From a virus, in IMG/VR virus record IMGVR_UViG_3300020438_004021, positions 1-64,000 of that record: 64,000 nt of DNA; one strand, written 5' to 3'. The notes under the pieces are model-generated. The model saw nothing but the letters and a program-made list of their open reading frames with translations. It was not told where the DNA came from and ran no database searches. Positions 13,473 through 64,000 of this stretch are shown here, piece by piece; positions within the stretch are counted from its first letter, which is position 1; each line of letters starts with the position of its first letter. A program made the position numbers and the translations under genes.

Positions 13473-14740
13473 AATCAATAGACCTACTGAGATTCAATAG
13501 ATTCGATGTAGCCGCTAAGCATCTATATCTAAAGAATTTAGATTCTGGATACCAGACTGATTTCGGCAGACACATATATTCAAGTCATATAGGAATCTGG
13601 AACAACTTTAAGGAATATGATAATCCCAATAAGAATAACGAGCAGTCTTTCATCGACTGCTTCGGGGATATCCATGATTCCATAAGCAAGGTTGGTTACA
13701 AAGAAGACCTCCCACCAGTCCCGATAACTGAAGAAGGTTTTCTGCTTAACGGTGCACATAGACTTGCTAGCTGCATAAAAAATGGTTGCGATATTCGAAC
13801 TGAGGTCACAAATGACCCCAAAGCCGGTCAAATCGATTGCACCTCTTATTTTTTCCTACAAAAGGGACTCGATTATAGAGTATGCGATTCAATCGCCATA
13901 GAATATGCTAAGCTGAAAGAAAATACTTTCATAGTCACCGTATTCCCAGTCGCTACCAAGAACGGTAATATGCTTGAAATCAGGGATATTCTGGTAGGGA
14001 ACGGGTGCAAGATAATTCATGAAAAAGGTGTGGTATTGGAAGGTCATGGACCCATAAACCTCATGAGGCAACTATACTCAGGAGAGGCTTGGGGTGGCAA
14101 TATGCAAAATGCTTTCTCCGGTTATTGCTTGAAAGCAAAATATTGTTATGAAGGTTCTTCAGAGAATCCGACATATGCCTTCTTGGTAGAGTGTGAAGAG
14201 GGTGGTCAAGAGCATATGCTCAAAGTGAAAGACAAGATTAGAGAAGTATACAATCTAGGCAAACATTCGGTTCATATAAATGACACCCATGAGGAGACCG
14301 TTAACCTAGCCAGGGTGTTCTTCAACGATAATAGCCTTCATTTTTTGAATAAGGCTAGCATACAACCATTCCAGAAATACGATTATTTATTCACACAATT
14401 GAAAGAGTGGATAAAATCTAATAAATATAACAGTGATGACATATGTATTACTGCTAGTTCAGTGATGTCAGCATATGGTATGAGGGAAGGACAAGATCTG
14501 GATTATCTCTACGGTGGTGAGGTTGAACCTTTGAATGGTCATGGTCTGATTAACGAGCATAACAAAGAAATTGAGAAATATACTGTTGGCAAAGACGAGA
14601 TAATGTATGATGATAGAAATCATTTCTATTTTGACGGGGTGAAGTTTGCCAGCCTTAAGATGATACATGAACTTAAAGAAAAGAGGTCTGAACCCAAAGA
14701 CCTCGCTGATATTGAAATAATGAAAGGTGTTTTAATATGA
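13469..14740 (+). CDS. hypothetical glycan-island protein (ParB-like N-terminus, nucleotidyltransferase-like C-terminus)
   Basis: LLNGAHRLAS; SSVMSAYGMRE..DLDYL. Confidence 0.55.
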   Translation: MKSIDLLRFNRFDVAAKHLYLKNLDSGYQTDFGRHIYSSHIGIWNNFKEYDNPNKNNEQSFIDCFGDIHDSISKVGYKEDLPPVPITEEGFLLNGAHRLASCIKNGCDIRTEVTNDPKAGQIDCTSYFFLQKGLDYRVCDSIAIEYAKLKENTFIVTVFPVATKNGNMLEIRDILVGNGCKIIHEKGVVLEGHGPINLMRQLYSGEAWGGNMQNAFSGYCLKAKYCYEGSSENPTYAFLVECEEGGQEHMLKVKDKIREVYNLGKHSVHINDTHEETVNLARVFFNDNSLHFLNKASIQPFQKYDYLFTQLKEWIKSNKYNSDDICITASSVMSAYGMREGQDLDYLYGGEVEPLNGHGLINEHNKEIEKYTVGKDEIMYDDRNHFYFDGVKFASLKMIHELKEKRSEPKDLADIEIMKGVLI

Positions 14741-43830: not shown

Positions 43831-43904
43831 GCTCCTGTAGCTCAGTTGGATAGAGCAGCGGACTTCTAATCCGCAGGTCACACGTTCGAGTCGTGTCGGG
43901 AGTG
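43831..43904 (+). tRNA. tRNA-Arg(UCU)
   Basis: canonical cloverleaf; GCGGA-CTTCTAA-TCCGC anticodon arm. Confidence 0.93.
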
Positions 43905-43910
43905 CTTATT

Positions 43911-50303: not shown

Positions 50304-50630
50304 ATGGTTGACATTCAAAAACAGCTTTACATGAACAACATTAGGGGTGCCAACAATAATGCCCAACCTGTTGACGGTGAGAAGACACCTCCACCACCAC
50401 CAGAGGTAGTACCCGTTGCTACACCACCCGAAGCATCTACAGATGGTAGCATCCCTCCCGCAGGTGATGTAACTACTGCAGATGGCAATATAGTACAGGA
50501 CGTTACGCAAGGCACAGATGACCCTGCTCCACAGAGTCCTTTCTTGGATGCTGTGATGAGAGAGCTGTCTAAGCACTCAGGTTTGGACACTACTCCAATT
50601 GTTGAGCCACCTGCTTCAGAAACTGACTGA
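50304..50630 (+). CDS. Pro-rich, probably disordered hypothetical protein
   Basis: GAGGA RBS, late promoter. Confidence 0.7.
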   Translation: MVDIQKQLYMNNIRGANNNAQPVDGEKTPPPPPEVVPVATPPEASTDGSIPPAGDVTTADGNIVQDVTQGTDDPAPQSPFLDAVMRELSKHSGLDTTPIVEPPASETD

Positions 50631-50633
50631 ATT

Positions 50634-50641
50634 TATAAATA
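50634..50641 (+). promoter_or_regulatory. T4-type late promoter for the putative ncRNA
   Basis: TATAAATA directly after the upstream stop codon. Confidence 0.7.
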
Positions 50642-50647
50642 CTGTAG

Positions 50648-50926
50648 ACCAAATAAAGGTATATAATACGAAAATGAACGCAAATCATTCGAACGATAAT
50701 GCAAATAATAGAAAAGACGGTGCAGTTCCTGCCTCACATTTCAGGACTGCACCGTCTTTTCGTATGAATTTTTCTTACGGTCCGAGCAAGATAGGCAGTG
50801 CGCCAGTCGTTATGCCATTCATGCAAGGTGGGGGTGTATCAGACCTCCACTAAGGAACTTCGCTACCTTTGGACCGTCATTCATAGTAGGCAACCCTCTG
50901 AGTATTTCAGGGGGTTGTCTTTTTTT
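50648..50926 (+). ncRNA. putative structured ncRNA with two arms antisense to 23S rRNA H69-H71
   Basis: bounded by promoter and terminator; ~20-bp hairpin at 50711-50761; arms 50793-50825 and 50852-50880 are reverse complements of conserved 23S sequence. Confidence 0.7.
50888..50926 (+). terminator. rho-independent terminator
   Basis: AGGCAACCCTCTGA-GTATT-TCAGGGGGTTGTCT-TTTTTT. Confidence 0.88.
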
Positions 50927-51001
50927 ATATATAAGAGGTAGCACTGTCCGTGTATATGGATATTTTTCCGAAAAATTCGGCCTCAGAGCGAAAGAGAGAC
51001 G

Positions 51002-51799
51002 ATGAAATCATTTAAACAATACATCAAAGAAGAACCGATGGGTATGAAAGGACTATTCGAAACACCTACCGGTGACGTGCTAATCGCAGAAGAACTGCAA
51101 ACGAAAGAAATCGACCCCAAGGAATTCCCAAAATCAATGAATTCTAGACTAGCAGCAATATATGCTAGAAAAGGTGAGATGGATGGGAAGCACTCAGACG
51201 ATGTGGTGAAGACCAAAAAAGCAACTTGGGCGGCTAGAAAGTTAAAACCCTCACAGTCTGCTATCTACCTCGGCAAAGCACTGGGTATGGCAGTCGGTGG
51301 TGTGAAGGGTGGGGACTTGGGTTCGATCGTTTCTAGCGATAACCACATCCTCGACGGACATCACAGATGGGCAGCCACAATGCTCTCAGAACCCACCGCG
51401 AAAATAATGGGCATATCAGCAGATTTAGGAATTGGTGACCTAGTTCCCGTATTGCGTTCCCTAGGAGATGCTTACGGTAATCAGAGAAGAGGTGAACCAA
51501 CTGGTGGTGATGTCAACATCTACAGGGCAAAAATGAAAGATGCTATGGATGCCCTAATGAACGGCACTAATATGAACCCCAAATTCTACGATAGAGAGAA
51601 ATCCATCGCTTGGTTAGAGTCAATTGGTGGTGAAGAAGAACTAGCAAACAGACTATCCGCACTACAGGATAGGACCCCACCCAGAGGTGCACCACCTAGA
51701 ATAGAGATGCCCGTCATTGATGCAGATAAAGGTCAAGAGAAAAAAGCGGCTAATGCATTGAAGCAAGGGCAACTAGATGTTAGAGCACCTTACGCATGA
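51002..51799 (+). CDS. ParB/Srx-like domain protein with capsid-targeting-like N-terminus
   Basis: MKSFKQYIKEE; LKPSQ and ILDGHHRWAA motifs. Confidence 0.75.
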   Translation: MKSFKQYIKEEPMGMKGLFETPTGDVLIAEELQTKEIDPKEFPKSMNSRLAAIYARKGEMDGKHSDDVVKTKKATWAARKLKPSQSAIYLGKALGMAVGGVKGGDLGSIVSSDNHILDGHHRWAATMLSEPTAKIMGISADLGIGDLVPVLRSLGDAYGNQRRGEPTGGDVNIYRAKMKDAMDALMNGTNMNPKFYDREKSIAWLESIGGEEELANRLSALQDRTPPRGAPPRIEMPVIDADKGQEKKAANALKQGQLDVRAPYA

Positions 51800-52506
51800 A
51801 AACATTCTCCCAATACATTTCGTTCATTTCAGAAGACAGCAATTTCAATATAGCTGTCGATGAGATAAAATATGGGTCTCCTACTGAAGAACAGAGAGAG
51901 AGGATGAATAGACCTCTGAATTATTTCTCTTCCGACGTTTTAGACTTGATAACTATGGGTGGTCCACCCAGCAATAGTAGCGATCTTACCCAGAAAGAGA
52001 TATTTTATCTTCTGAAACTGATTGATAATAGGACCGAGGAGGATGCTGAGAAGTTTAATAAATATGATGAACACTTCTCCCCCTACTTCATCAATTATGC
52101 CAAGGATAACGACTTGGAATTCGATGAAGAAGAGATTAGAGACATAAGAAGAGAGGCTGCCAACGTTATGCTCATTTCTAAGTTCCATTTCAACAGACCC
52201 AGACCACACCAGTTGGGTGTAGTGCTAGGAACAGAGATTAGAAGCATGAATACGGAGTCTGGACACACACCAGCATACCCGAGTGGACATGCAGCCCAAT
52301 CCAGACTCATTGCATTGGTGTTATCAGACAAAAACCCTGACCACCAAGAGCAGTTAATGAAACTAGCAGATGATATAGCACTATCTAGGGAACTAGGTGG
52401 TGTACACTACCCCTCGGACAATGACTTCGGCAAGAAGGTCGGAGACATGTTATATAGCAACCTGATGAGAGAAGAATATCCAATGTCTATGGATGGAGAC
52501 GACTAA
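51796..52506 (+). CDS. PAP2/vanadium-haloperoxidase-superfamily phosphatase with capsid-targeting-like N-terminus
   Basis: K..FNRPRP, PAYPSGH and SR..GGVHYPSD motifs. Confidence 0.85.
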   Translation: MKTFSQYISFISEDSNFNIAVDEIKYGSPTEEQRERMNRPLNYFSSDVLDLITMGGPPSNSSDLTQKEIFYLLKLIDNRTEEDAEKFNKYDEHFSPYFINYAKDNDLEFDEEEIRDIRREAANVMLISKFHFNRPRPHQLGVVLGTEIRSMNTESGHTPAYPSGHAAQSRLIALVLSDKNPDHQEQLMKLADDIALSRELGGVHYPSDNDFGKKVGDMLYSNLMREEYPMSMDGDD

Positions 52507-55500
52507 TGAATAAATTTAAACGTTTGATACTAGAGAGCAAACCCACTTTGAACTCTAGTGCTGATAGTGGTTCCGCCGCAATATTGACTCCAACCACCGT
52601 CAGTTCCGGCAAAATCGCTTTCTACCCCAATCCAGTCGGTATATGGAATTCCCTCCTAACCAGAGACATCAGAGGTATAGTTAAACCTGCATCTAAGAAA
52701 GATGCAGTTAGGAACCTTAAGTCTCTAATCGGTCAGGCTAGAGCAGAAGAACTATATAAAGACTTCGAAGATTACACCAGTCTACTTTTCAATAAGAGAG
52801 AAGCAGGTCTCGCTGCGACGATATATGATGCAGAGGCTACCTTAGAGAAAAGCAAAAATACTAAACCTTTCACCGAGTTTGAGTTGACCGGTGACATCTT
52901 ACTTTCTATGCTGCACGGTACTGATATTGGATTCAGATCAGATGACGATGGTGATGAGGGAGAAGATGAGAAAGAAGAAGATAAGCCCTACACACAGGAC
53001 CCAAAAGATCCTCTCCGATTTACTGATCCCGCTGGAAACGACTACTACGATTTAGATGGAGACGGTGTTCCAGATATGATTTGGAACGGGACAGAATGGG
53101 TTCCTCTACCAGATGGTGGTGGTTTTTGGGATGAAGACCCATCAGACGAAGGTGAAGACGAGGATGAAGACCCATCAGACGAAGGTGAAGACGAGGATGA
53201 AGACGAGGACGAGGATGAAGAAGATGAGGATGAGGATGAAGAAGATAAAGAAGAGCGGAAAGACGTATGGCCCGAAGAATGGCCTGGTGGTTGGGATAAC
53301 GTGCCCGATGATTTGAAACCAATCCTAATCAAACCATATATGGACGATGATGGCAAATTCACTGACCCAGAAAATCCACCTCCGATTCTAGAAGATGACG
53401 ATACGCAGGATGTACCTGGAAGTGGAACTCCAATTTGGAATCCAGAACTGAAAGAATGGGGGTGGTACGAAGTACCACCGGGTAAATGGTTTCCGTGTGA
53501 ACCCGAGGACTTCGGTCTTAATCCAGACCACCCATACCACCCAGACTACGATGATACTAGGGCAGCATCAGGACAGGGTGATGACAACCTTCCCGACGAC
53601 CTTCCGGACTTCCCCGAAGAGGATATGTATCAGAATATTCAGGATGATGGAACCTGGACTTCCGGTGGTTATACCTGGCAGGTAGGAGAAAATGGCGAAT
53701 TGATGGTTCTAATCGATGGTAGATGGATAGTCAGAGCAGATAAACTAGACACTGACCCTGATGAAGAAGGTGATGATGTTCCACCTTTAGATGACAATTT
53801 AATTCATCCCGGTTATTTTGACCAAATTATTCCAGGTGCTGGTGAACCCGGTTATTATAGTGATTCCACTCCTGATGACATTGCTGATATTCTATATCAT
53901 ATCATCGACAAGTATAATAAAGAGCAGCAACAACACTATCCGGATATTCACCAAAGGATACCAGGCGAGAACGAGCAGAAGCCTGCTTGGTTGGAAGACC
54001 CAATCCAACACCCTAATTATCAAAAACCAGGACGTCGTCCTGGTCGTATGAGAAAACCAGACTTCCAGATGGGGGGAGCGAAGAATATAGGTTTAGACGG
54101 CATTATAAAGATGTTGCCGAATATGGACCCACCACTAGCAAGGATGGTCAGGAATATACTTTCTGCGATGGAACAAATGGGACAGATGCGTGATGGAGAC
54201 ACTACAGGGGATAAACCAAAGCCTTGTGCTTTCCCTCCTTGTGCGGGAGACCCTCAACGTCCCGGAGACGACCCTAAAGACCAGATAGATTACACCGACG
54301 ATTTTCCTATTGATGATGACGACGACGGGGATGACGACGACGGGGATGATGAAGGAGAGACTGTAGGAGATGAACCAATACCATGTGCTTTCCCTCCTTG
54401 TGAGACTCGTCCTGAGGATGACCCGACAGACCAGATAGACAGTGAAGATGATTTCCCTATCGATGACGATGATGACGATGATGACGATGATGATGATGGT
54501 TTAAACGACTACTCAGGTCCGGCATCTATCTCTAATATACCATCATATGTCAAACCTAAACTGCCTAATCTGCAATGGAATAACTTCACAGATGATAACG
54601 GTGAGGTTGAAGACCCATATTTATGGCAAAGACCGGTGGGTGTCAGTGGAGGCTCCGTTAATTCTCCTGCCTTAGATTATTATAGCCCCTTCATTGATAA
54701 GATGGGATGGGTCAACGAATCTTTCAATAGAAGACTGAATGAGAGAGTAAGCAGAGAAGATATGGACCACGGAAAGTCTTCTAAACTTGCTAAGGGTTGG
54801 GTGCATCCTTCAGGCAAGATATATGTTTGGAAAAATTTGAAACCATATCATGTACAATATATTGCCACCAAACCTGGTAAATTTGGACTCAAAGAAGACG
54901 ATATTTATAACCATTTGCTACAAAGATACACAGAGTATGGTGTCAACCAACCTCAAAATAGTGCTATGTCAGATGTCGAAAAATTAAAAGATGGAACCGT
55001 TGACATCGATAGAAAAGTAGAGTTAATGGCGATTAAAAAGGGCTGGTGCAGATTTGTACTCGACGACGGTTGGGGAAGCCTTAGGGGTATGAAGAACAAA
55101 GATATGCATAAATGTGCCAAGATCCTGTTTAGCAAGATGGAAAGTAAGTTTACCAGAAGTTTCGGACTAGAGTTAAACAAGATAGATTCCAAGCTTGGAG
55201 ATTATGACTATAGAAAACATACAACTCTTGGTTTTGATATGTTCAGGGAATGGATAGGTGGAAGACAACCAGACCCTGCAAGTGTTAAAGTTAGAAAGCA
55301 TACCGAGATAGGCAAAACTATGAAGATGTTTAGAGGTCATGACTATGATGAACCAGTTAAAATATACAGCGATTGGCAACCACCTTCGTTCAAAGATTGG
55401 TTGAAAGAATCCGTGGAAATGGAAGACGGAAAGTATATTACTGTGAAGCAATTTAACTCTGAGGATGCAGCTATGGCATCTATAGAGAATGCAGAAGGTC

Positions 55501-56180
55501 TTATTGACCACATGAAGATTATGGATTCTGTGTATGCTATGGTGTTCGATAATGAAGACCACAAAGAGAAGTTCGTGAAAGATTATGAATTTAATCTTAT
55601 GGGGGAATCAACCATATATGATTCCAACTCAATTAGTGAGAAGAGCAGTAGAGCAGAAATAGAGGGTGCTATGGAATGGTGGCATGGTGAAATCCTTGCT
55701 TCCAGTAAGAGAGAAAGAGCAGCCATGGGATATAGTAGACCCGAGAACATCAGGGAACTGATTAGAAGACCTATTCCTATGCTCAAATATCATATCAAGA
55801 TGTATAATGCTTACCTAGACGAATATGGTCCTTTCGATGAAGTCCCGTCCAGACTAGAAGAGGGATGTGGGTGTGGTTGTGAAGAATGCAAAGGTTCTGA
55901 ATTAGAAGAGGCAGAGTACAAAGGCAAAAAGGTCACATTAAATAAACCTTTTAGAACACCAGGCGAATCTAAGAAATTCGCAGTTTATGCCAAGAATGAA
56001 AAAGGAACTGTTGTTATTGTGAGGTTCGGGGACCCTAATATGGAGATAAAAAGGGATGACCCAAAAAGGTTAAAGGCATACCGATCTAGAATGGGGTGCG
56101 ATACCGATCCGGGACCTAAATGGAAAGCAAACTATTGGTCTTGCTATCAATGGAGAGCAGGAGCAAAGGTAGACGATTGA
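52506..56180 (+). CDS. large acidic multi-module protein, candidate internal head polyprotein
   Basis: 1224 aa; D/E tracts, repeats, internal SFKDWLKES, C-terminal EAEYKGKKVTLNKP...YWSC module. Confidence 0.75.
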   Translation: MNKFKRLILESKPTLNSSADSGSAAILTPTTVSSGKIAFYPNPVGIWNSLLTRDIRGIVKPASKKDAVRNLKSLIGQARAEELYKDFEDYTSLLFNKREAGLAATIYDAEATLEKSKNTKPFTEFELTGDILLSMLHGTDIGFRSDDDGDEGEDEKEEDKPYTQDPKDPLRFTDPAGNDYYDLDGDGVPDMIWNGTEWVPLPDGGGFWDEDPSDEGEDEDEDPSDEGEDEDEDEDEDEEDEDEDEEDKEERKDVWPEEWPGGWDNVPDDLKPILIKPYMDDDGKFTDPENPPPILEDDDTQDVPGSGTPIWNPELKEWGWYEVPPGKWFPCEPEDFGLNPDHPYHPDYDDTRAASGQGDDNLPDDLPDFPEEDMYQNIQDDGTWTSGGYTWQVGENGELMVLIDGRWIVRADKLDTDPDEEGDDVPPLDDNLIHPGYFDQIIPGAGEPGYYSDSTPDDIADILYHIIDKYNKEQQQHYPDIHQRIPGENEQKPAWLEDPIQHPNYQKPGRRPGRMRKPDFQMGGAKNIGLDGIIKMLPNMDPPLARMVRNILSAMEQMGQMRDGDTTGDKPKPCAFPPCAGDPQRPGDDPKDQIDYTDDFPIDDDDDGDDDDGDDEGETVGDEPIPCAFPPCETRPEDDPTDQIDSEDDFPIDDDDDDDDDDDDGLNDYSGPASISNIPSYVKPKLPNLQWNNFTDDNGEVEDPYLWQRPVGVSGGSVNSPALDYYSPFIDKMGWVNESFNRRLNERVSREDMDHGKSSKLAKGWVHPSGKIYVWKNLKPYHVQYIATKPGKFGLKEDDIYNHLLQRYTEYGVNQPQNSAMSDVEKLKDGTVDIDRKVELMAIKKGWCRFVLDDGWGSLRGMKNKDMHKCAKILFSKMESKFTRSFGLELNKIDSKLGDYDYRKHTTLGFDMFREWIGGRQPDPASVKVRKHTEIGKTMKMFRGHDYDEPVKIYSDWQPPSFKDWLKESVEMEDGKYITVKQFNSEDAAMASIENAEGLIDHMKIMDSVYAMVFDNEDHKEKFVKDYEFNLMGESTIYDSNSISEKSSRAEIEGAMEWWHGEILASSKRERAAMGYSRPENIRELIRRPIPMLKYHIKMYNAYLDEYGPFDEVPSRLEEGCGCGCEECKGSELEEAEYKGKKVTLNKPFRTPGESKKFAVYAKNEKGTVVIVRFGDPNMEIKRDDPKRLKAYRSRMGCDTDPGPKWKANYWSCYQWRAGAKVDD
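53130..53247 (+). repeat. coding tandem repeat (DEDPSDEGEDE x2) plus D/E tract
   Basis: 33-bp unit GATGAAGACCCATCAGACGAAGGTGAAGACGAG present twice. Confidence 0.85.
54216..54498 (+). repeat. coding duplication PCAFPPC...DQID..DDFPIDDDD x2
   Basis: two degenerate copies, each followed by poly-Asp. Confidence 0.85.
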
Positions 56181-56226
56181 GGCAGAAATGAAATCTAAAA
56201 AAAATAAATAATCTGGAGATAATAAT

Positions 56227-57594
56227 ATGAAATCATTTAAACAGTTTACTTGCCTGACGGAGGCGACTAAGGACGAGAAATCTTTTGTCTCCTATTTGAG
56301 AACTAATGTATTCAATAACGATAAAAAATTCGTGGCAAGAAGCAGAAATGGTTATCATGTTAGATTTCCCATAGACGGCAGTGATAGTAAAATCGCCTCG
56401 TTCTGGAAGAAACACGGCATCCTATGCGTACACGATCCAGAGATGGATATAAGCGGTTCATTCAAAGAATATCTCCTAACTGCCACGGACAAAATGCCCG
56501 GTTCTGATGGAAGTTTGACTGGTAAGACACTATGGTATGTCAACAACAGCAGAAAGGCTGCCAGCGGTGGAGAATTGATATTCGGTAATAAAGAGCTGAC
56601 ACCCGACAAAGTTGGTCTTGATGGAAAGACATTGGCATTGAGAGGAATCAAGACAACAATTAAGAAATTTACTGATGGTCTTGACAAAAGGATAGGCAAC
56701 TATCTGTTCTCACTGGTAGACCTAGCAGGTAAGACCAGAGGAGAAGAGTCTAAAATCGATTTCGACATTGGTTTAAAACCAGCAGATCTGAAGGTAGTAT
56801 CTAAAGACTTCGGTGAAACCATAGCAGCAGCCTGGGCACTCAAGTCCAATATAGTAGATGCTAGCAAGATTTACTTCCCAGCAGCGGGCAACGAACCATT
56901 AGTCGACTTTTATGCAGTACCTAAGGGCGGTGGGATGGTGGGTTATTCTGTCAAGTCTGGTGCTGGTGCTGGAACTAGCATTAAGAACATTGCGGAAGAC
57001 TTGGAAAGTAAGGCAGCAGACCCTAAATGGATGAAGTCCTTCAGCAGCACTGAGCAGAGTGTAATTAGACTTGTGGGTCACCTACACAAGACTTCTGCTA
57101 CCCAAGGTGTCATTGATGCAAATATCGCTATGGGGACACCAGGCATCAAAGCACTAGCAGATGCTATGGGTGTAAGAAGACCTCAAAGGAAATCCTTGGG
57201 TGCAATCACTCCAGACCAGATAAATCTCTGGTTACAATCTATTGGTACACTAGAAAAAAGATACGAGGCTGCTAAGAAGCTTTATAAAATCTTCGGCAGT
57301 GAGACCACTTGGGCGATTTGGAAAAGGATAGGCAGGTCTAACTCTCAGGCAGCAGCGATTATTAATCCCCTAGGGTATCATGTTGTCTCACACCTTAATA
57401 AGGCAGGTCAAGACACGCTGAACAAGGCTGTTAAGAAGTTGCAAGTCCTTCAGCTAGATGTAAATGTAACCAGCACCAAACTTACATTCGGTGTTAAGTC
57501 CTTCAAAGATATGGATTTTGAATTCGAATATCACTCTTCAATAAGTGGTGGTACTAGTGTAAGTAACAAACTAGGATTTAAGAAGAAAAGATAA
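56227..57594 (+). CDS. putative PD-(D/E)xK-like nuclease with capsid-targeting-like N-terminus
   Basis: MKSFKQF..LTE; KDFGE, FP..GNEPLVDF and SVKS motifs. Confidence 0.55.
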   Translation: MKSFKQFTCLTEATKDEKSFVSYLRTNVFNNDKKFVARSRNGYHVRFPIDGSDSKIASFWKKHGILCVHDPEMDISGSFKEYLLTATDKMPGSDGSLTGKTLWYVNNSRKAASGGELIFGNKELTPDKVGLDGKTLALRGIKTTIKKFTDGLDKRIGNYLFSLVDLAGKTRGEESKIDFDIGLKPADLKVVSKDFGETIAAAWALKSNIVDASKIYFPAAGNEPLVDFYAVPKGGGMVGYSVKSGAGAGTSIKNIAEDLESKAADPKWMKSFSSTEQSVIRLVGHLHKTSATQGVIDANIAMGTPGIKALADAMGVRRPQRKSLGAITPDQINLWLQSIGTLEKRYEAAKKLYKIFGSETTWAIWKRIGRSNSQAAAIINPLGYHVVSHLNKAGQDTLNKAVKKLQVLQLDVNVTSTKLTFGVKSFKDMDFEFEYHSSISGGTSVSNKLGFKKKR

Positions 57595-58100
57595 TGAAAT
57601 CATTCGAGCAGTACATAGCAGAAGCAAAGAGGTGGACACTTGATAAACTTCAAGTCGGTGATATAGTTACCTATAAAGATGGTTCGCAAGCAGAGGTGAT
57701 GACCCATGAGACCAGTAAGAATAATTCTAACTATTTCGACATTCGTATGAAGGACATAAAGACAGGATACGAATTCGCACATCAAAATAAAAAGCCGGGA
57801 AGAACTACTGGAAGTTCAACAATAACCAAAGTGGTTCGCAATGGTGAAGTATCATCCAGATTAGAAGAGGCAAGAAGATTTACACCATCTGGTACATTCC
57901 AATTTCCTAGTGCAAACCAGGCAAAAGATTTCATGAGTGATATTTCAAGAGAAGGAAGAGGGAATATCCAAACTCAGCACAGATTTGAACAAGGTTACGG
58001 CAGGAAGAATATAATCGATGTAAAATGGTCAGGCACTATGGATAGAGTAGTATATGACGTTCTTAGAAAATATAATGGTCGTGCATGGACTCAAGGGTAG
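57594..58100 (+). CDS. two-module protein with capsid-targeting-like N-terminus
   Basis: MKSFEQYIAE; internal SRLEE linker. Confidence 0.7.
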   Translation: MKSFEQYIAEAKRWTLDKLQVGDIVTYKDGSQAEVMTHETSKNNSNYFDIRMKDIKTGYEFAHQNKKPGRTTGSSTITKVVRNGEVSSRLEEARRFTPSGTFQFPSANQAKDFMSDISREGRGNIQTQHRFEQGYGRKNIIDVKWSGTMDRVVYDVLRKYNGRAWTQG

Positions 58101-58107
58101 GACCTTA

Positions 58108-59070
58108 ATGAAATCATTCAAGCAATTCATATCAGAGACATACAAAGACTCAGGCATTGGTAAATGGATGAGTCAATCAGCAGGTGGTTCACCTGGTTGG
58201 GATAGATATGGTCTAGACGGTAAGAAAATTGGTAAATGTGGTGATGCCAAAGAGGGTGAGGCATATGCTGCCTGCTTGTCTCCTGCCAAGGCTAAGAAGT
58301 TGGGCAAGAAGGGGATAGCATCTTTTGTGAGAAGAAAGAGGGATGCACAGAAGAAGTCAGGTGATTCTGCCAAAGGCGGAGAAGAGAAAAAAGGTCAGAG
58401 TCCGACATATGTAAAGACTGAAGACTGGTCCGAAAAATACAAAAGAAGCATAGACTGTAATAATCCGAAAGGTTTTTCTCAGAAAGCCCATTGTGCCGGT
58501 AGGAAAAAGAAGAAAAACAACGAAGCAGTCAAGACCAGAATCGATACTGATCTAGAAGTGTTGGTGGTGCAAAACAAAGATGGTGAACCTAATACCTACT
58601 CTTCAATGGAGGATGCCAAGAAGACTGCTAAGAAGATTCAGGGCAAAGTTATTAGAGGAGTGGACGGAGAGATTATGGTTCAGGTCTTAATAGACCCCAG
58701 CATCAGAAAGCATTTGGATGAGAACAGCAAAAATCCGGGCAAAGAATATTATGAGAGAATGGCAGATAAGTTGAGAAAGGCTGGATATGACCTGAGGAAG
58801 CCTATTAATAGAAAGAAGGCATGGGATGTCATAGGCAGTATGGCAGTAAGCAGACTAGCCGATAAGGGATATATTGATATCGAAGGTGGTGAGGGTAGGC
58901 AAAAGAGAGAATCTGTTTCTGAGTCTGAGAACGAACCAACAAATCCGTCTCTGTGGAAGAAAGCATTATCTAAGGCTAAATCTAAGTTCGATGTCTATCC
59001 TTCAGCATATGCTAGTGCTTGGGCATCCAAGTGGTATAAAGAACAAGGTGGAGGTTGGAGGAAGAAATGA
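58108..59070 (+). CDS. multi-module protein with capsid-targeting-like N-terminus
   Basis: MKSFKQFISE; WSEKYKRSIDCNNPKGFSQKAHC and PTNPSLW...YPSAYA..W modules. Confidence 0.75.
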   Translation: MKSFKQFISETYKDSGIGKWMSQSAGGSPGWDRYGLDGKKIGKCGDAKEGEAYAACLSPAKAKKLGKKGIASFVRRKRDAQKKSGDSAKGGEEKKGQSPTYVKTEDWSEKYKRSIDCNNPKGFSQKAHCAGRKKKKNNEAVKTRIDTDLEVLVVQNKDGEPNTYSSMEDAKKTAKKIQGKVIRGVDGEIMVQVLIDPSIRKHLDENSKNPGKEYYERMADKLRKAGYDLRKPINRKKAWDVIGSMAVSRLADKGYIDIEGGEGRQKRESVSESENEPTNPSLWKKALSKAKSKFDVYPSAYASAWASKWYKEQGGGWRKK

Positions 59071-59273
59071 AATCATTTAGCGAGTACATATCGGAAAGAT
59101 TGAAGATTAACTACCGAAAAGGCAGGAAGTTGGTTGCTACAAAAGGGAGCAAAGAGGGGGAAACCGGCACTGTAGTGTCGATGGGTCCAAACGCTTCTTT
59201 TGTGAGCATAAAGTTAGATAAGAACGATCAGATAATCCAGCAGAATCCTAAATATTGGGAAGTTATGAAATGA
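59067..59273 (+). CDS. small protein with capsid-targeting-like N-terminus
   Basis: MKSFSEYISE; GGAGG RBS. Confidence 0.7.
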   Translation: MKSFSEYISERLKINYRKGRKLVATKGSKEGETGTVVSMGPNASFVSIKLDKNDQIIQQNPKYWEVMK

Positions 59274-60481
59274 AGTCTTACAAAGAATTTGTTACTGAAG
59301 GTAAAAATACCCATATGGAGCATCTTGAAGACGAGATGTGGAACGGTGGTTCCGTTGGTGTAAAAAATGCTCTCAACTTTGCCAGAGGTGTAGCCGAGAT
59401 GCTGTCTGGAAGCAGTAGTTCATCAGTTAATATAACAACCAAGTGGGATGGTGCACCCGCAATAATATGCGGCATAAATCCAGAGAATAAAAAATTCTTC
59501 GTGGGTACTAAGAGTGTATTCAACAAGGCAACACCAAAAATCAACTACACTAATTCGGACATAGATAAAAACCACAGTGGGGACTTGGCAAACAAACTGA
59601 AGACAGCATTAAAGCATCTATCCAAGTTAGGCATTAAAAATGTCATACAGGGAGATTTTATGTTCTCTTCTTCAGACTTAGGCAGTATGAAGGTGGATGG
59701 AGAGTCTCATATTACATTCACACCCAACACTATCACCTATGCAGTAAAAGATGGCGGTCCAATAGCAAAAGAAATTAAAAATGCTAAGATAGGGATAGTG
59801 TTTCATACCGAGTATAAAGGTAGAAAGATGTCAGAGATGACAGCATCTTTCAACCCTAATATTAAGAGATTAAGCAAGAACAAGAACGTATGGTTTAGAG
59901 ATGCAGATTATAAAGATGAGAGTGGTTCATCTACACTTACGAGTTCTGAACTCAGCTCCATAATGAAAGACATTAAATCTGCGGAGAGTAATATGTCTTC
60001 TAAAGTCTCTAAGATAATAGATGAGGTTATGTCCAACAGGAACATAATATCGCATATAAAAACATATACCAACTCTCAGATTAGGGGAGGTTCTTCCAAG
60101 GTAGACACTAAAGGTGTGGTGGGTCACATAAAAAACAAATTCCAAGATGCTATCTCCAAACTCAAGACTGATTCTGGTAAAGAGAGGAAGAAGGCGGCTA
60201 TGGATGAACTGGTTAAATACCTAGAGTCCATAAAGACGGAACTGGATTCAGCATTCGTACTTTATGGTCTGATTAGCGATATGAAGATAAAACTAATCAG
60301 GAAGTTAGAGAAAATAAAAGGCATCGGAACCTTTGTAAGGACCGATGACGGTTTCAAGGCAACCGCTCCTGAAGGATTTGTAGCAGTAGACAAGATTTCA
60401 AGCAGAGCACTGAAGCTGGTAGATAGATTAGAGTTTAGCAGGTCTAACTTCACTGTGGCGAAGAACTGGGTTAGCGGCTAG
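59270..60481 (+). CDS. conserved T4-like protein (DUF6267-like, ligase-like KxDG motif)
   Basis: MKSYKEFVTE; KNTHMEHLED, TKWDGAPA, QGD, PNTITY, EGFV and KLVDR.EFS..NF motifs. Confidence 0.75.
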   Translation: MKSYKEFVTEGKNTHMEHLEDEMWNGGSVGVKNALNFARGVAEMLSGSSSSSVNITTKWDGAPAIICGINPENKKFFVGTKSVFNKATPKINYTNSDIDKNHSGDLANKLKTALKHLSKLGIKNVIQGDFMFSSSDLGSMKVDGESHITFTPNTITYAVKDGGPIAKEIKNAKIGIVFHTEYKGRKMSEMTASFNPNIKRLSKNKNVWFRDADYKDESGSSTLTSSELSSIMKDIKSAESNMSSKVSKIIDEVMSNRNIISHIKTYTNSQIRGGSSKVDTKGVVGHIKNKFQDAISKLKTDSGKERKKAAMDELVKYLESIKTELDSAFVLYGLISDMKIKLIRKLEKIKGIGTFVRTDDGFKATAPEGFVAVDKISSRALKLVDRLEFSRSNFTVAKNWVSG

Positions 60482-60482
60482 T

Positions 60483-60490
60483 TATAAATA
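60483..60490 (+). promoter_or_regulatory. T4-type late promoter
   Basis: TATAAATA. Confidence 0.7.
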
Positions 60491-60511
60491 ATATATTGCT
60501 AGGAGACAACA

Positions 60512-61018
60512 ATGCCAACATTAAATTTGACAACACACTTTACGGTTACAATGGATGATGATGATAACCACATCATCTCCGGTGGAAGCACCAGTGCAGC
60601 AGATTCAATTACCGTAAACTACTATTATGATAAAAGATTCGAGATTGCCAACGGTGCTACCGCAGAAGTATTCAATGATGAACTTCTGGCAGATCCTCAG
60701 TTCTTATATCTAGAATCCAATGCCAGTCCAGTAGAAATTCAACTTATGTGTAGTCAGGCGGGAACGACCAGTGGTGAAAACATAGAAAATGCTTTTTGTC
60801 ACACCCTAAAGGCAGGTATACCATACATTTTGGCATCTACTTCTTGTAGACATCAAGGAGACATGGGTGCTTCTGGAGAGTCAGCAGGTATTGTTAAATA
60901 TCTTGGCGAGGTAGATGACTGGGTTAACCAGTGGGGCACTGGTGGCACACTAGACAGGATAGAGGTTTATAACCCATCAGGGGGAACCGCAAAGGTTAGA
61001 GTTTTCACAGCTAAATAA
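60512..61018 (+). CDS. hypothetical late protein
   Basis: AGGAG RBS, late promoter. Confidence 0.7.
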   Translation: MPTLNLTTHFTVTMDDDDNHIISGGSTSAADSITVNYYYDKRFEIANGATAEVFNDELLADPQFLYLESNASPVEIQLMCSQAGTTSGENIENAFCHTLKAGIPYILASTSCRHQGDMGASGESAGIVKYLGEVDDWVNQWGTGGTLDRIEVYNPSGGTAKVRVFTAK

Positions 61019-61044
61019 AAATATCATTTTAAGGAGATAAAGAA

Positions 61045-61248
61045 ATGGCTTCAAAGTTTTGGATAGCACACAACGAAGATGCAAGGGCTGCTCAGAATAG
61101 AGCATCATATGTCGCTGAGAACGGCGGTCAGTGGGTGAATCGTGGTGGTACACGAGGATGGCATCACACAAGTGGTGAACCAAAGGCTGCACCTGTTGCC
61201 AAAGAGGCAAAGGTCAAAAAAGCATTTAAGTTTAATAAAAAGAAATAA
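61045..61248 (+). CDS. hypothetical protein
   Basis: AAGGAG RBS. Confidence 0.65.
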   Translation: MASKFWIAHNEDARAAQNRASYVAENGGQWVNRGGTRGWHHTSGEPKAAPVAKEAKVKKAFKFNKKK

Positions 61249-61271
61249 TATTTATCTAAAAGGAGATTGAT

Positions 61272-61385
61272 ATGGACTCGATTTTAGGAACAATTTGGTT
61301 TTCGGTAATAGTTTTTGTGGCAGGTGCTTTAGTCGGTACACCACTTTGGAATTGGGCTAAGGGTTACCTACCTTGGAACAAGTGA
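61272..61385 (+). CDS. small single-pass membrane protein
   Basis: AAGGAG RBS; MDSILGTIWFSVIVFVAGALVG... Confidence 0.6.
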   Translation: MDSILGTIWFSVIVFVAGALVGTPLWNWAKGYLPWNK

Positions 61386-61389
61386 TATT

Positions 61390-63540
61390 TTGAATAGATA
61401 CACCCTTCCAACCAAGTCTAGGTTAAATGAGCAGGACGGTAAGGGGATAGTATTTACCTTTGGTAGATTCAATCCTCCACATACTGGTCATGAGTTGCTA
61501 ATTAATAAAGTTATGCAGGTATCCAAGAGAAAAGGGTATGATCATGGCATTTATGTTAGCACATCTCAGGGAGACGAGAGGAACCCAATACCATACGACG
61601 AGAAGGTTAGACTCCTAAGAGCAGCATTCAAGAAGAGTAATGTCGCGAAGGATAAAACCTTGAAGAATCCATTCTATGTCGCCAAAGAACTTAGCGACAA
61701 AGGATATAAGAATGTGATATTAGTGGTTGGTGGAGATAGGGTCAAAGAATTAGAAAGAAGCATGAAAAAATATGTGAACCACAGCGACCCCAATAAATCT
61801 TGGAACTTCGACTCATTTGAGGTGGTCAGTGCTGGCAGAAGAGATGCAGACGCAGATGATGTGAGCGGTATGTCTGCTTCTAAGATGAGAAAGTCGGCTA
61901 CTTCTGGAGACTTTGACACTTTCAAAAGAGGTGCACCCTCCGGAATGAAATCTAGGGACGTAAAGAAGATGTATACCTCAATTAGAAAGACGTCTGGAAT
62001 TAAAGAAGAAATTCAATCATTATTCGATGCCCTCAATCTTCTAGAAACTAGTAGGGATGACATAATGTCATTGGGTGAAGATACTTTGTCGGTAGAGGCC
62101 TTTAATTTCTTGCTAGAGCAGGACGAAGAGGATGACTCTCCTCAAGATACCCCCACTCTTGTGGTGCTATCTAAATTCGAAGAATCAGATGAATACAGCG
62201 ACACTGTAAGCAAAATAGATAAAGCATGTGACTCTTTGGACATATCATTCTTCGCTGTGTCTGTGGATGATGCCTTCATAGTAGATGAGGAAGTCTCAGA
62301 CGATGAGCTTATAATCCATAACTACGACGGAGAGAACAATAAGATAACTCTGAACACAGACAACACAGTCTGCTGGCCTAGAGGTGGGGTAATGTCTCAC
62401 CAATCTGGGATGGGTCTTCTTAGCACACTACAAGACTCTGGAGTTTTCTGTGTCAATAAGTTAAGCACGATGGAATTATGCAGGAACAAATTTGCTACCT
62501 CTACAATGTTAGACAGGAACAACATACCATCCCCAAGGACCGCACTGGTCACCAACGAAGATGCTGTGGATATTGCACTAGAGAATATAGGTGGAGAGTT
62601 CCCAGTGGTCATCAAGACCATCACTGGTGCTGAAGGAATAGGGGTATCCATTGTTGAGTCATATAAATCTCTTAAGAGTGTTTTACAGTCTCTATGGAAA
62701 TTCGATGCTGAAGTAATCATACAAGAATATATGGAAATAGAGTATGATGTCAGGACCATAGTACTAGATGGAAAAATCATAGCATGTATGAAGAGGTTGA
62801 AGGGGGATGGAGATTTCAGAACAAATAAGGCACTTGGAAATGAAACCGAACCGTATGATTTATCGGAAGAAGAAAAATCATTAGTACTAAAGACTGCCAA
62901 ATTAGTGGGTGGTTTTCTATCAGGTGTAGACCATGTTACTGTCGATGGAGAGCATATGGTGCTAGAGGTGAATACATCGCCGGGTAGCGGTGCTCAGAAG
63001 TACACAATGTATGATGAAGAAGGGGAACCATACATAGGTGTCGGACAAGATATAGTGAATGTGGTAGTAGGACACATAACGGATAAAAACAACTGGGTTT
63101 ATTCTACCAAAGAGATAGGTGAACTTGAGAAAATATATATCTATGGTGTTGGAGAACTCATATCTAAAGCCGATACTGGCAATGGAAGTTACAATTCACT
63201 TCATGCCGAAGAAATAACAATAGAAGACGATGTAGTAAGCTTCTTCACCGAGAATGATACAGAGATGGTTCTACCTCTAATCGATATGGTAACCATCAAT
63301 ATGGGGGGCGATACTGAAGAAAGACCAGTAGTCCCTCTAGACTTCAAGATGGGGGACAAGGAATATAAGTCTATACCCTTCTCTCTAACAGATAGAGACG
63401 ATATGGACTACCCCGTGTTACTGGGAAAAGAATTCTTACAAAAGGCTAGGTTCTCGGTTAACGTATCTAAGAAGTATGAACTGACAGAAGAACCGTTTTG
63501 CGACTGGTTTGCATGGCAGAAAAGAAACTTAAGCCCTTAG
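61390..63540 (+). CDS. cytidyltransferase-like + RimK-like ATP-grasp + retropepsin-like protease fusion
   Basis: FGRFNPPHTGH; PVVIK...G..G.GV, IIQEY, DVR, FRTN, LEVN.SPG; AKADTG...LLG. Confidence 0.82.
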   Translation: MNRYTLPTKSRLNEQDGKGIVFTFGRFNPPHTGHELLINKVMQVSKRKGYDHGIYVSTSQGDERNPIPYDEKVRLLRAAFKKSNVAKDKTLKNPFYVAKELSDKGYKNVILVVGGDRVKELERSMKKYVNHSDPNKSWNFDSFEVVSAGRRDADADDVSGMSASKMRKSATSGDFDTFKRGAPSGMKSRDVKKMYTSIRKTSGIKEEIQSLFDALNLLETSRDDIMSLGEDTLSVEAFNFLLEQDEEDDSPQDTPTLVVLSKFEESDEYSDTVSKIDKACDSLDISFFAVSVDDAFIVDEEVSDDELIIHNYDGENNKITLNTDNTVCWPRGGVMSHQSGMGLLSTLQDSGVFCVNKLSTMELCRNKFATSTMLDRNNIPSPRTALVTNEDAVDIALENIGGEFPVVIKTITGAEGIGVSIVESYKSLKSVLQSLWKFDAEVIIQEYMEIEYDVRTIVLDGKIIACMKRLKGDGDFRTNKALGNETEPYDLSEEEKSLVLKTAKLVGGFLSGVDHVTVDGEHMVLEVNTSPGSGAQKYTMYDEEGEPYIGVGQDIVNVVVGHITDKNNWVYSTKEIGELEKIYIYGVGELISKADTGNGSYNSLHAEEITIEDDVVSFFTENDTEMVLPLIDMVTINMGGDTEERPVVPLDFKMGDKEYKSIPFSLTDRDDMDYPVLLGKEFLQKARFSVNVSKKYELTEEPFCDWFAWQKRNLSP

Positions 63541-63543
63541 AGA

Positions 63544-63551
63544 TATAAATA
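63544..63551 (+). promoter_or_regulatory. T4-type late promoter
   Basis: TATAAATA. Confidence 0.7.
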
Positions 63552-63594
63552 ATTTCAGAACCTTTCCTCAAAGAGAACAGATATGGAGAAGAAA

Positions 63595-64000
63595 ATGAAA
63601 ACTTTCAATGAACTAAAAGAATCGATAGCGGCTGTAGTGCCTAGAGCATATCATGCCATGACAGCAGTGCCTCAAGAGACAGACAAGAATTTCTCTGACA
63701 CTAGAGACCCCGAGATAGTAGATAGGATTAATGTTGCACTATCGCACATCAATAAACTGCCTACCTCGGACCCTCGTTCTAGAATTAACGAGATTAAGGT
63801 GATTTTGAGTCACGCGGGTATAGATTTCGACCATACTAGTGTGCAGTTCCAAGAAGGTGTACCAATGGCAGTGCCAGTGAAGAAATTCGGCGGTCGCATC
63901 GGAATGACACCAGAAGACGGATACATCAACGACGATGGCTTTGGTGGGATGCCCCACCAGCTTACCTTTAACTGGTCCAAGAGCAGTGGTTCTTGGATGC
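63595..64000 (+). CDS. partial late gene with capsid-targeting-like N-terminus (runs off the window)
   Basis: GGAG RBS; MKTFNELKES; open to the window end. Confidence 0.65.
   Translation, partial: MKTFNELKESIAAVVPRAYHAMTAVPQETDKNFSDTRDPEIVDRINVALSHINKLPTSDPRSRINEIKVILSHAGIDFDHTSVQFQEGVPMAVPVKKFGGRIGMTPEDGYINDDGFGGMPHQLTFNWSKSSGSWM

Follow-up and report, generated by a model that had tools for sequence, protein, structure and literature searches.

What is an inverted piece of bacterial 23S ribosomal RNA (rRNA) sequence doing between two genes of a phage, and which of its strands is read? This question is raised by positions 50634-50926 of the window, by which we mean the 64,000 bases of DNA analysed here. 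The window is the first 64 kb of the 136,240-base IMG/VR virus record IMGVR_UViG_3300020438_004021, which comes from a marine, T4-like phage with a lytic-type genome and is estimated to be 75% complete. An earlier note on this DNA (the original prediction) had proposed that the element encodes an RNA antisense to helices 69-71 of 23S rRNA, with a hairpin of its own opposite helix 71. Sequence comparison indicates that the element is a real, conserved phage RNA gene derived from host-type 23S rDNA, and it is most likely read antisense. The best explanation would be that its RNA pairs with the nascent 23S rRNA of the host, a reading to which we give a probability of roughly one half. We infer the transcription of the + strand, the target and all the downstream effects discussed below.

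Results

Similarity of the element to 23S rRNA

The element is single-copy in the phage record and lies in a non-coding gap of 371 bases, flanked on the left by a gene of 108 codons that ends at 50630 and on the right by one of 265 codons that begins at 51002. From left to right, the gap contains the motif TATAAATA, an A-rich stretch, a hairpin (hairpin 1), a multi-branched core (50777-50887) and a terminator. Our blastn search showed that the minus strand of 50793-50880 is 71.6% identical to E. coli 23S rRNA over 88 nucleotides (nt), and the 23S match was present in all 5426 of the 5426 E. coli genomes. Arm 1 (50852-50880) matches the E. coli sequence without gaps at 26 of 29 positions, and arm 2 (50793-50825), antisense to about 1963-1995, matches it at 19 of 33 positions overall and at 16 of the first 19; the 26/29 and 16/19 counts are those of the original prediction, which were reproduced. 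A new result is that, at the sequence level, the arms fit Planctomycetota 23S rRNA far better than that of E. coli. Against the two best-fitting 23S genes, from a Planctomycetota metagenome-assembled genome (L336) and a member of the Planctomycetaceae (L309), arm 1 matches at 28 of 29 positions and arm 2 at 31 of 33, and these two are the only panel sequences that share the variable arm stretch of the window exactly.

The single mismatch of arm 1 to Planctomycetota 23S lies opposite U1926. The two differences in arm 2 are, on the + strand, a C-to-U and an A-to-G change. Both keep wobble pairing with the rRNA, and they turn two A-C mismatches into Watson-Crick pairs of an internal GGCA/UGCC stem, which the rRNA-sense strand could already form with G-U pairs. 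Since the changes make Watson-Crick pairs on the + strand, they provide a small argument that this is the strand that must fold.

When one genome per species was scanned, at least 120 genome stretches had the arm 1 block with G at 1938. The 80 titles listed for them, assigned to lineages by name, comprise 71 Planctomycetota lineages, 6 lineages of other phyla and 3 unnamed ones. The original prediction had pointed to Planctomycetota, and within them Phycisphaerales, as the possible source of the differences from E. coli. The phylum stood, but the order did not, because Phycisphaerales carry a different arm 2 signature; judged from the sequences compared, the best-fitting rRNA type is that of Planctomycetia (Planctomycetaceae).

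The E. coli 23S structure of this region was taken from the Rfam alignment of a 23S piece (L115). In the canonical numbering, which we take to be the L115 position minus 585, helix 69 spans 1906-1924, helix 71 spans 1945-1961, and the junction strands are 1925-1944 and 1962-1971. Read on the minus strand, the core reproduces 23S positions ~1913-1995 in remodelled form, with a covarying hairpin in place of helix 71. Because the core is an inverted, remodelled copy of Planctomycetota-type 23S, its RNA is antisense to three parts of that molecule, namely the loop and 3′ strand of helix 69, the junction strand 1927-1944 and the strand 1963-1995. No Rfam 15 family matched the core, either at the gathering thresholds or at E ≤ 10. 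Likewise, neither the window nor the complete 136-kb record matched the bacterial large subunit rRNA family (RF02541), the likeness being limited to 88 nt.

Several other identities were considered and rejected. A guide RNA of the small nucleolar RNA (snoRNA) type was rejected on its only H/ACA match, which scored 19.8 bits against a threshold of 60 and fell on hairpin 1 rather than on the core (no separate search for box motifs was made). For transfer RNA (tRNA), tmRNA and Y RNA, neither ARAGORN nor Rfam found anything here, and no TROVE gene was found in the record. A cis-encoded antisense RNA of the CopA or RNA I type does not suit a single-copy element in a phage record without an rRNA gene, nor does an attP-like rRNA fragment suit one that is internal, remodelled and part of a T4-like lytic genome. 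As for a trans hammerhead or other small ribozyme, no core motifs were seen by eye and Rfam gave no match.

Homologues in uncultured phages

Three pattern scans of IMG/VR returned 44, more than 110 and more than 116 stretches. Scans 1 and 2, after deduplication, yielded at least 69 distinct elements in 17 sequence clusters, on contigs of uncultured phages; none of these elements is a true rRNA gene. In scan 1, eight matches were chance-like and inside coding sequence (L071, L072, L082, L087, L093, L095, L100 and L109), two loci gave long rRNA alignments (L104, 2356 nt; L107, 349 nt), and the remaining 34 had the same plan as the window. One of the chance-like matches, at L087:3436-3476 of a viral contig, is 41 nt long and 97.6% identical to E. 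coli 23S (~1917-1957); it lies in apparent coding sequence and is without the family plan. An assembly chimera with rRNA reads, a concern raised by the original prediction, is rejected: the element occurs in dozens of independent contigs, helix 71 is replaced, and long rRNA alignments are confined to the 2 of 44 scan 1 loci.

The family plan consists of TATAAATA, often a few bases 5′ of the first helix, a closing helix, a TACGC.AT.CATGC-like block antisense to about 1964-1979, a variable middle, AAGGAAYTTCGCTACCTT, which is antisense to 1927-1944, the 3′ strand of the closing helix, and the terminator. In the subfamily of the window, the middle is a covarying hairpin (helix 2), which is 95.1% paired and in which 7 of 9 pairs have changed on both sides while the arms are kept, as the original prediction expected of true homologues. 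The substitute hairpin opposite helix 71 was thus found in this subfamily, but it is not universal. The middle is absent in L003 and in minimal forms, and in L008 and L010, which a covariance model of eight window-like elements picked out and whose sequences were then read directly, it is an antisense copy of helix 71 itself. These two elements (L008:2255-2342 and L010:1371-1458), from relatives of the phage, have TATAAATA or CATAAATA, block 3, the antisense helix 71 and a block 2 of a GGGAT variant, which a terminator follows directly. They lie ~700 nt 5′ of the gene for a 265-aa protein, which is 54% and 53% identical to that of the window.

The covariation score of the alignment was 0.450 compared with 0.275 in shuffles, and none of 500 shuffles reached the observed value. 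Changes on both sides were found in 14 of 29 pairs, with compensatory changes in three helices, and the terminator stem (helix 4) also covaries. The alignment thus indicates a conserved non-coding RNA gene with a fold supported by covariation. The element is 89.2% identical to that of L113 over 186 nt, while the aligned coding segments of L113 are 80.5-87.6% identical and the DNA adjoining the element does not align; the same pattern was found in L108, L150 and L146. The compensatory changes, the terminator and the conservation above the flanks together argue for selection on the folded RNA.

On rRNA coordinates, identity in the family is low at 1925-1926 (0.2-0.3) and across helix 71 (0.1-0.4), 0.7-0.9 at 1915-1924 and 1964-1979, and near 1.0 at 1927-1942, where the search patterns themselves account for part of the value. 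A scan with block 3 only was intended to avoid this bias. An unrelated match to coding sequence, contributed by a single large contig group, dominated its output, but among the matches listed six known members were found again (L117, L074, L122, L127, L078 and L081), all of them with the block 2 core.

No match to the element was found in cultured-phage records at E ≤ 1. A blastn match in Paenibacillus phage Pd_22F was rejected, for it belongs to a whole, unannotated 23S gene and not to this element. That gene (record L426, MZ092003.1 82209-84658) is ~2.5 kb long and 75% identical to E. coli 23S. Two short genes annotated as 'hypothetical protein' overlap it, and it probably represents host DNA that entered the assembly. 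The viral contig L141 carries at 14417-14539 a stand-alone 126-nt fragment, 83% identical to E. coli 23S (~1917-2038), with helix 71 intact and no obvious terminator seen. It may have arisen by a similar capture and been remodelled little since.

Strand of the functional RNA

The original prediction had taken the + strand, which is antisense to rRNA, as the likely functional one, and our results agree with it in several respects. The predicted strong intrinsic terminator is present at 50888-50926, where a 15-pair stem (50888-50920) is followed by a T run, and the terminator scan reported it on the + strand only. Among 64 distinct elements, a terminator was found 3′ of the core on the + strand in 52; on the minus strand there was one in 19, and in those cases it is the upstream hairpin. 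The motif TATAAATA stands on the + strand at 50634-50641, directly 3′ of the stop codon of the upstream gene (50304-50630). The late promoter proposed at this position is present as a motif, which we take to be that of T4 late promoters; the promoter itself is here a motif match only. The window contains TATAAATA ten times on the + strand, mostly just 5′ of gene starts, and once on the minus strand, at 54909. In the family, it was found 40-260 nt upstream on the + strand in 21 of 69 distinct elements, compared with 2 of 69 at the equivalent distance on the minus strand. Nearly all the long open reading frames of the window are on the + strand.

Folding also distinguishes the strands. For 50648-50926, the fold energy is −104.5 kcal/mol on the + strand (z = −8.96), where none of 200 shuffles was equally stable, and −91.7 kcal/mol on the minus strand (z = −6.04). 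The consensus fold is more stable on the + strand in four of five clusters (for example, −46.2 versus −30.8). Pairs predicted on both strands include 30 G-U pairs, which are acceptable on the + strand and mismatched on the minus strand, against 13 A-C ones; in one closing helix, three pairs are G-U on the + strand and would become A-C mismatches on the minus strand. The central hairpin shows the same asymmetry, as had been noted: the G-U pair is present within 50828-50850, and the minimum free energy (MFE) fold adds another at 50827/50851. A strand-neutral search for closing helices was dropped, as it returned many spurious helices (275 Watson-Crick, 56 A-C and 54 G-U). On the terminators, the TATAAATA motifs, the G-U and A-C counts and the fold energies, this in-silico evidence favours the antisense strand over the rRNA-like one, and the + strand is very probably the functional strand.

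Predicted pairing with nascent 23S rRNA

Block 2 (50852-50869, + strand) is an AAGG/CCTT stem with a 10-nt loop, AACTTCGCTA, which is the complement of 23S positions 1931-1940. Over 68 elements, the ten loop bases have mean unpaired probabilities of 0.56-0.84, compared with 0.39 overall, while the flanking GG and CC are paired. The predicted folds thus present an exposed seed complementary to 23S rRNA. When 50765-50926 was cofolded with a 122-nt Planctomycetota 23S fragment, the net gain over the separate folds was −75.4 kcal/mol. With the E. coli fragment instead, the gain was −48.5; the sense strand gave −3.4, and 30 shuffles averaged −9.9, the best of them reaching −16.8. The predicted minimum-energy dimer pairs both arms with the rRNA and leaves helix 71, the phage hairpin and the terminator intact; it is the four-way junction with helix 71 free that the original prediction had envisaged.

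The domain IV core of 23S rRNA forms intersubunit bridges, and the strands concerned are buried in the mature 50S subunit. We propose a mechanism in which the fold keeps the 10-nt loop open and pairing with newly made, still unfolded 23S rRNA would begin at this loop. The duplex would then grow through the two arms to as many as about 64 pairs and result in a four-way junction from which rRNA helix 71 and the phage hairpin protrude. The domain IV core would be unable to fold in this complex, and new 50S subunits would stall, or a double-strand RNase would cut the long duplex. The effects named in the original prediction, namely a block of assembly, a guide for cleavage or a shield of the site, are likewise putative. 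A wider and more tentative proposal, which we hold with less than even confidence, is that Planctomycetota phages, and perhaps others, repeatedly capture, invert and refold the 23S domain IV core, and that the resulting late RNA pairs with both sides of nascent helix 71, stopping or redirecting the production of new large subunits.

Other features of the RNA gene

From the features described, the RNA gene probably extends from the motif at 50634 to the terminator at 50888-50926, with a length of ~280 nt, or of ~150 nt if the start follows hairpin 1. All of its features are on the + strand. An A-rich leader at 50648-50710, whose start point is putative, is weakly structured in the predicted fold. 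It is followed by hairpin 1 (50711-50761), a 20-pair stem between an A run and a T run, which is terminator-like on both strands; the original prediction had not mentioned it. Hairpin 1 would either form the 5′ module of the RNA or terminate the upstream gene. Similar hairpins were also found 5′ of the core in L003/L094, L113, L108, L083 and the L096 group.

Both closing stems named in the original prediction, ACGGTCC/GGACCGT and TATGAAT/ATTCATA, are present in the fold. The latter is the outer stem P0, whose 5′ strand (50763-50769) pairs with 50881-50887 in the MFE fold. P0 is not conserved in L113, the closest homologue, and may thus be fortuitous. The closing helix P1, on the other hand, has been retained in homologues with differing sequences; its 5′ strand (ACGGTCCG, 50777-50784) pairs with 50870-50877 in the fold. 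Arm 2 is partly in the internal GGCA/TGCC helix. The central hairpin (50827-50851), with nine pairs and a 7-nt loop, occupies the place of rRNA helix 71. Its loop (50836-50842) keeps a TATC/CATC core (GTATCAG, ATATCTA and CTATCAA) while the stem covaries freely.

According to the alignment and the cofold, 50870-50887 comprises the 3′ strand of P1, which is antisense to the 3′ strand of helix 69 (1919-1925), followed by CATTCATAGT, where the complement of the helix 69 loop carries an insertion of 4 nt. The part of P1 opposite the 3′ strand of helix 69 doubles as a structural helix, and it varies. The sequence CATAG 5′ of the terminator is conserved in the subfamily of the window and, with the 4-nt insertion, is the complement of the helix 69 loop. 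A TTTATATATA-like stretch is also conserved 3′ of the terminator (window 50921-50940, L113, L108, L083 and L094), which may belong to the U tract or to the promoter of the next gene.

Genomic context

The upstream neighbours of the element are PstS-like and Hsp20-like genes. Downstream (window 51002-64000), there are genes of unknown products with near-identical N-termini, MKSFKQY, and the same start was found in L003 and L004. One idea is that a late RNA at the head of the MKSFKQY gene cluster might act at, or be carried into, the next infection.

Comparison of 20 kb of the DNA with three planctomycete genomes gave tRNA-like matches, the rRNA match itself and one 23-nt exact match, which lies outside any repeat array. 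The phage tRNA-Arg(TCT) at window positions 43831-43905 is 83% identical over 89 nt to the tRNA-Arg(TCT) of the planctomycete G005, a similarity too weak to name a host. Two bacterial contigs, L388 and L406, have 23S genes with the G1938 block that are interrupted near the helix 71 loop, in L388 by ~380 nt inserted around 1950; the interruption may be an intron or an intervening sequence.

Discussion

Evidence against pairing with 23S rRNA

A number of observations weigh against the pairing of this RNA with host 23S rRNA. Because the target strands are buried in the mature 50S subunit, pairing would be confined to rRNA that is nascent or unfolded. The arms are themselves partly locked in internal helices and have been reshaped for them. 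A C stands opposite A1969 in most of the subfamily of the window, and none of the 35 scan-1 elements is complementary to the rRNA at both 1925 and 1926. Transitions are weakly biased towards wobble pairing (202 versus 150), and there are 488 transversions among 5014 aligned positions. Block 2 is the most conserved part of the family and invariant in the window's own subfamily, a conservation that is partly forced by the search patterns. Hairpin 1, terminator-like as it is, sits between the promoter motif and the core. The MFE asymmetry of single sequences across the family is not significant (35 versus 29, p = 0.06). RNA libraries from seven runs in three studies hold parts of this stretch, and low-depth contigs from four of the runs include X2 (50722-51061) and X6 (50771-50921), both identical to the window; such contigs carry neither strand, ends nor level, and DNA carry-over is possible.

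The same holds for some of the evidence on the phage and its host. No gene for a TROVE protein, RNase III or an Rnl2-type ligase was found as a partner in the 136-kb record, itself 75% complete. Block 2 was present in none of four large related phage records (37-70% complete), which makes the element accessory. The Planctomycetota host is presumed from the sequences: a guaB-like protein of the phage is 54-58% identical to those of two planctomycete genomes and 57% identical to that of a Coproplasma metagenome-assembled genome, which does not tell the phyla apart. On the side of the pairing, elements of the L078 type, with a Phycisphaerae-type arm 2, fit Phycisphaerae best in six of six cases, those of the L096 cluster fit Planctomycetia best in seven of seven, and the window's own cluster splits into 8, 2 and 2 ties, all with score margins of 1-5 points on a panel of 48 planctomycete and 7 other sequences. 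Since the margins are small and the panel is nearly all Planctomycetota, lineage tracking of the arms by cluster is suggestive only.

Alternative explanations

Some of these observations would suit an exapted scaffold, in which the + strand RNA is functional through loops that bind a phage or host protein or another RNA, and the rRNA likeness is a trace of its origin. We consider this unlikely. Complementarity has been given up for internal helices, namely GGCA/TGCC in the window and, with C opposite A1969, GATAG/CTATC in L113, L108 and L150; the wobble bias is weak, and the scaffolds vary greatly around one constant hairpin loop, which would also suit a protein-binding site. However, complementarity to rRNA has been kept in two separate blocks, whose order and placement on either side of helix 71 are those of the rRNA, and the different planctomycete class signatures of the subfamilies would need either repeated capture in the same orientation or co-evolution with rRNA. 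Furthermore, none of the three partner genes was found, and the neighbours differ between homologues. That the minus strand is transcribed instead, as a sense mimic of the helix 69-71 core that titrates an rRNA-binding protein, a modification enzyme or an rRNA-cutting toxin, is very improbable. The minus strand is the rRNA-like one, hairpin 1 could end its transcript, as could such a site in 19 of 64 elements, and L108 and L113 fold slightly better on it. Against this, the window's sole minus-strand TATAAATA is far off, the terminator directly 3′ of the core acts on the + strand only, and the genes are all on that strand; the G-U excess, the three G-U pairs of one closing helix and the consensus energies of four of five clusters also favour the + strand. 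Helix 71, moreover, is part of the surface that would be imitated, and it has been replaced or deleted.

The position between two + strand genes, with two terminator-like hairpins, could also indicate a cis-acting module, which would either give the upstream transcript a structured 3′ end or attenuate the downstream MKSFKQY cluster, and contig X2 does span from 50722 across the terminator to 51061. But the flanks of L113, L108, L150 and L146 do not align, neighbours are not conserved, a different gene lies 3′ of the element in L003, and many family members have TATAAATA a few bases 5′ of the first helix, so that we regard this as improbable. A riboswitch or attenuator of the PyrR type (RF00515) was rejected in particular, as the match scored 17.7 bits against a threshold of 54 on the terminator alone and the downstream genes differ between homologues. 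Least probable of all is a neutral or DNA-level relic, that is, captured host rDNA without an RNA function, such as a recombination or homing-endonuclease site. The plain 126-nt fragment in L141 would fit it, as would the departure of the family from rRNA at 1925-1926 and helix 71, which we believe to be near known rRNA intron sites, and the two panel bacterial 23S genes interrupted near the helix 71 loop. It does not account for compensatory changes in three helices, a conserved terminator and conservation above the flanking DNA. An antisense RNA that would pair with nascent host 23S rRNA remains our preferred explanation.

Comparison with known systems

The routes by which phages are known to us to take over translation are proteins, tRNAs and small RNAs directed at mRNA. 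If the predicted pairing is true, it would be a new viral control of ribosome production, a natural counterpart of antisense antibacterials and an analogue, in the bacterial world, of the pairing of snoRNAs with pre-rRNA. The rRNA signatures in its arms are specific to lineages, so that the element would also tell which lineage an uncultured phage infects, and we know of few cultured virus-host pairs for Planctomycetota; the arms would offer a testable host marker for phages of this phylum. With at least 69 distinct copies, the family is common enough for comparative work.

The original prediction knew of no phage system of this kind, and we likewise found no description in the literature of a bacterial virus making an RNA aimed at host rRNA, in addition to the lack of an Rfam match. 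The passages of the full-text literature consulted, those of PMC9602691 included, contained no description of a phage RNA complementary to rRNA; a cyanophage antisense RNA, CFrI, is mentioned in those of PMC9602691.

The element resembles the trans-encoded base-pairing small RNAs of bacteria and phages in being a short non-coding gene that has a promoter-like motif and an intrinsic terminator and whose folded RNA is predicted to expose a complementary stretch. It differs from them in that the putative partner is the universally conserved core of 23S rRNA instead of an mRNA, in that the complementarity extends over ~60 nt in two arms, and in that the phage gene was evidently built from host rDNA and inverted. 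As in the plasmid antisense RNAs of the CopA/CopT and RNA I/RNA II pairs, a loop presents the bases with which pairing would start, and a multi-way junction is the predicted final complex. CopA and RNA I, however, are read opposite their own target genes, whereas the target-like gene here is in the host.

Like the snoRNAs (U3, U8, snR30, and the C/D and H/ACA guides), it would be a small RNA that pairs with conserved rRNA strands in ribosome assembly, and some of those are also two-armed around a hairpin; the phage RNA differs in having no Rfam family match and far longer arms. To our knowledge, rRNA pairing of the snoRNA type has no counterpart in bacteria or phages. The rRNA-mimicking leaders that bind ribosomal proteins are likewise short copies of an rRNA site outside the rRNA gene, but they are sense copies, whereas the evidence here favours the antisense strand. 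Finally, blocking of ribosome function through pairing with rRNA is the idea behind synthetic antisense oligomers against rRNA, the subject of the review PMC12828698. Those oligomers are man-made, whereas the RNA proposed here would be natural and virus-encoded.

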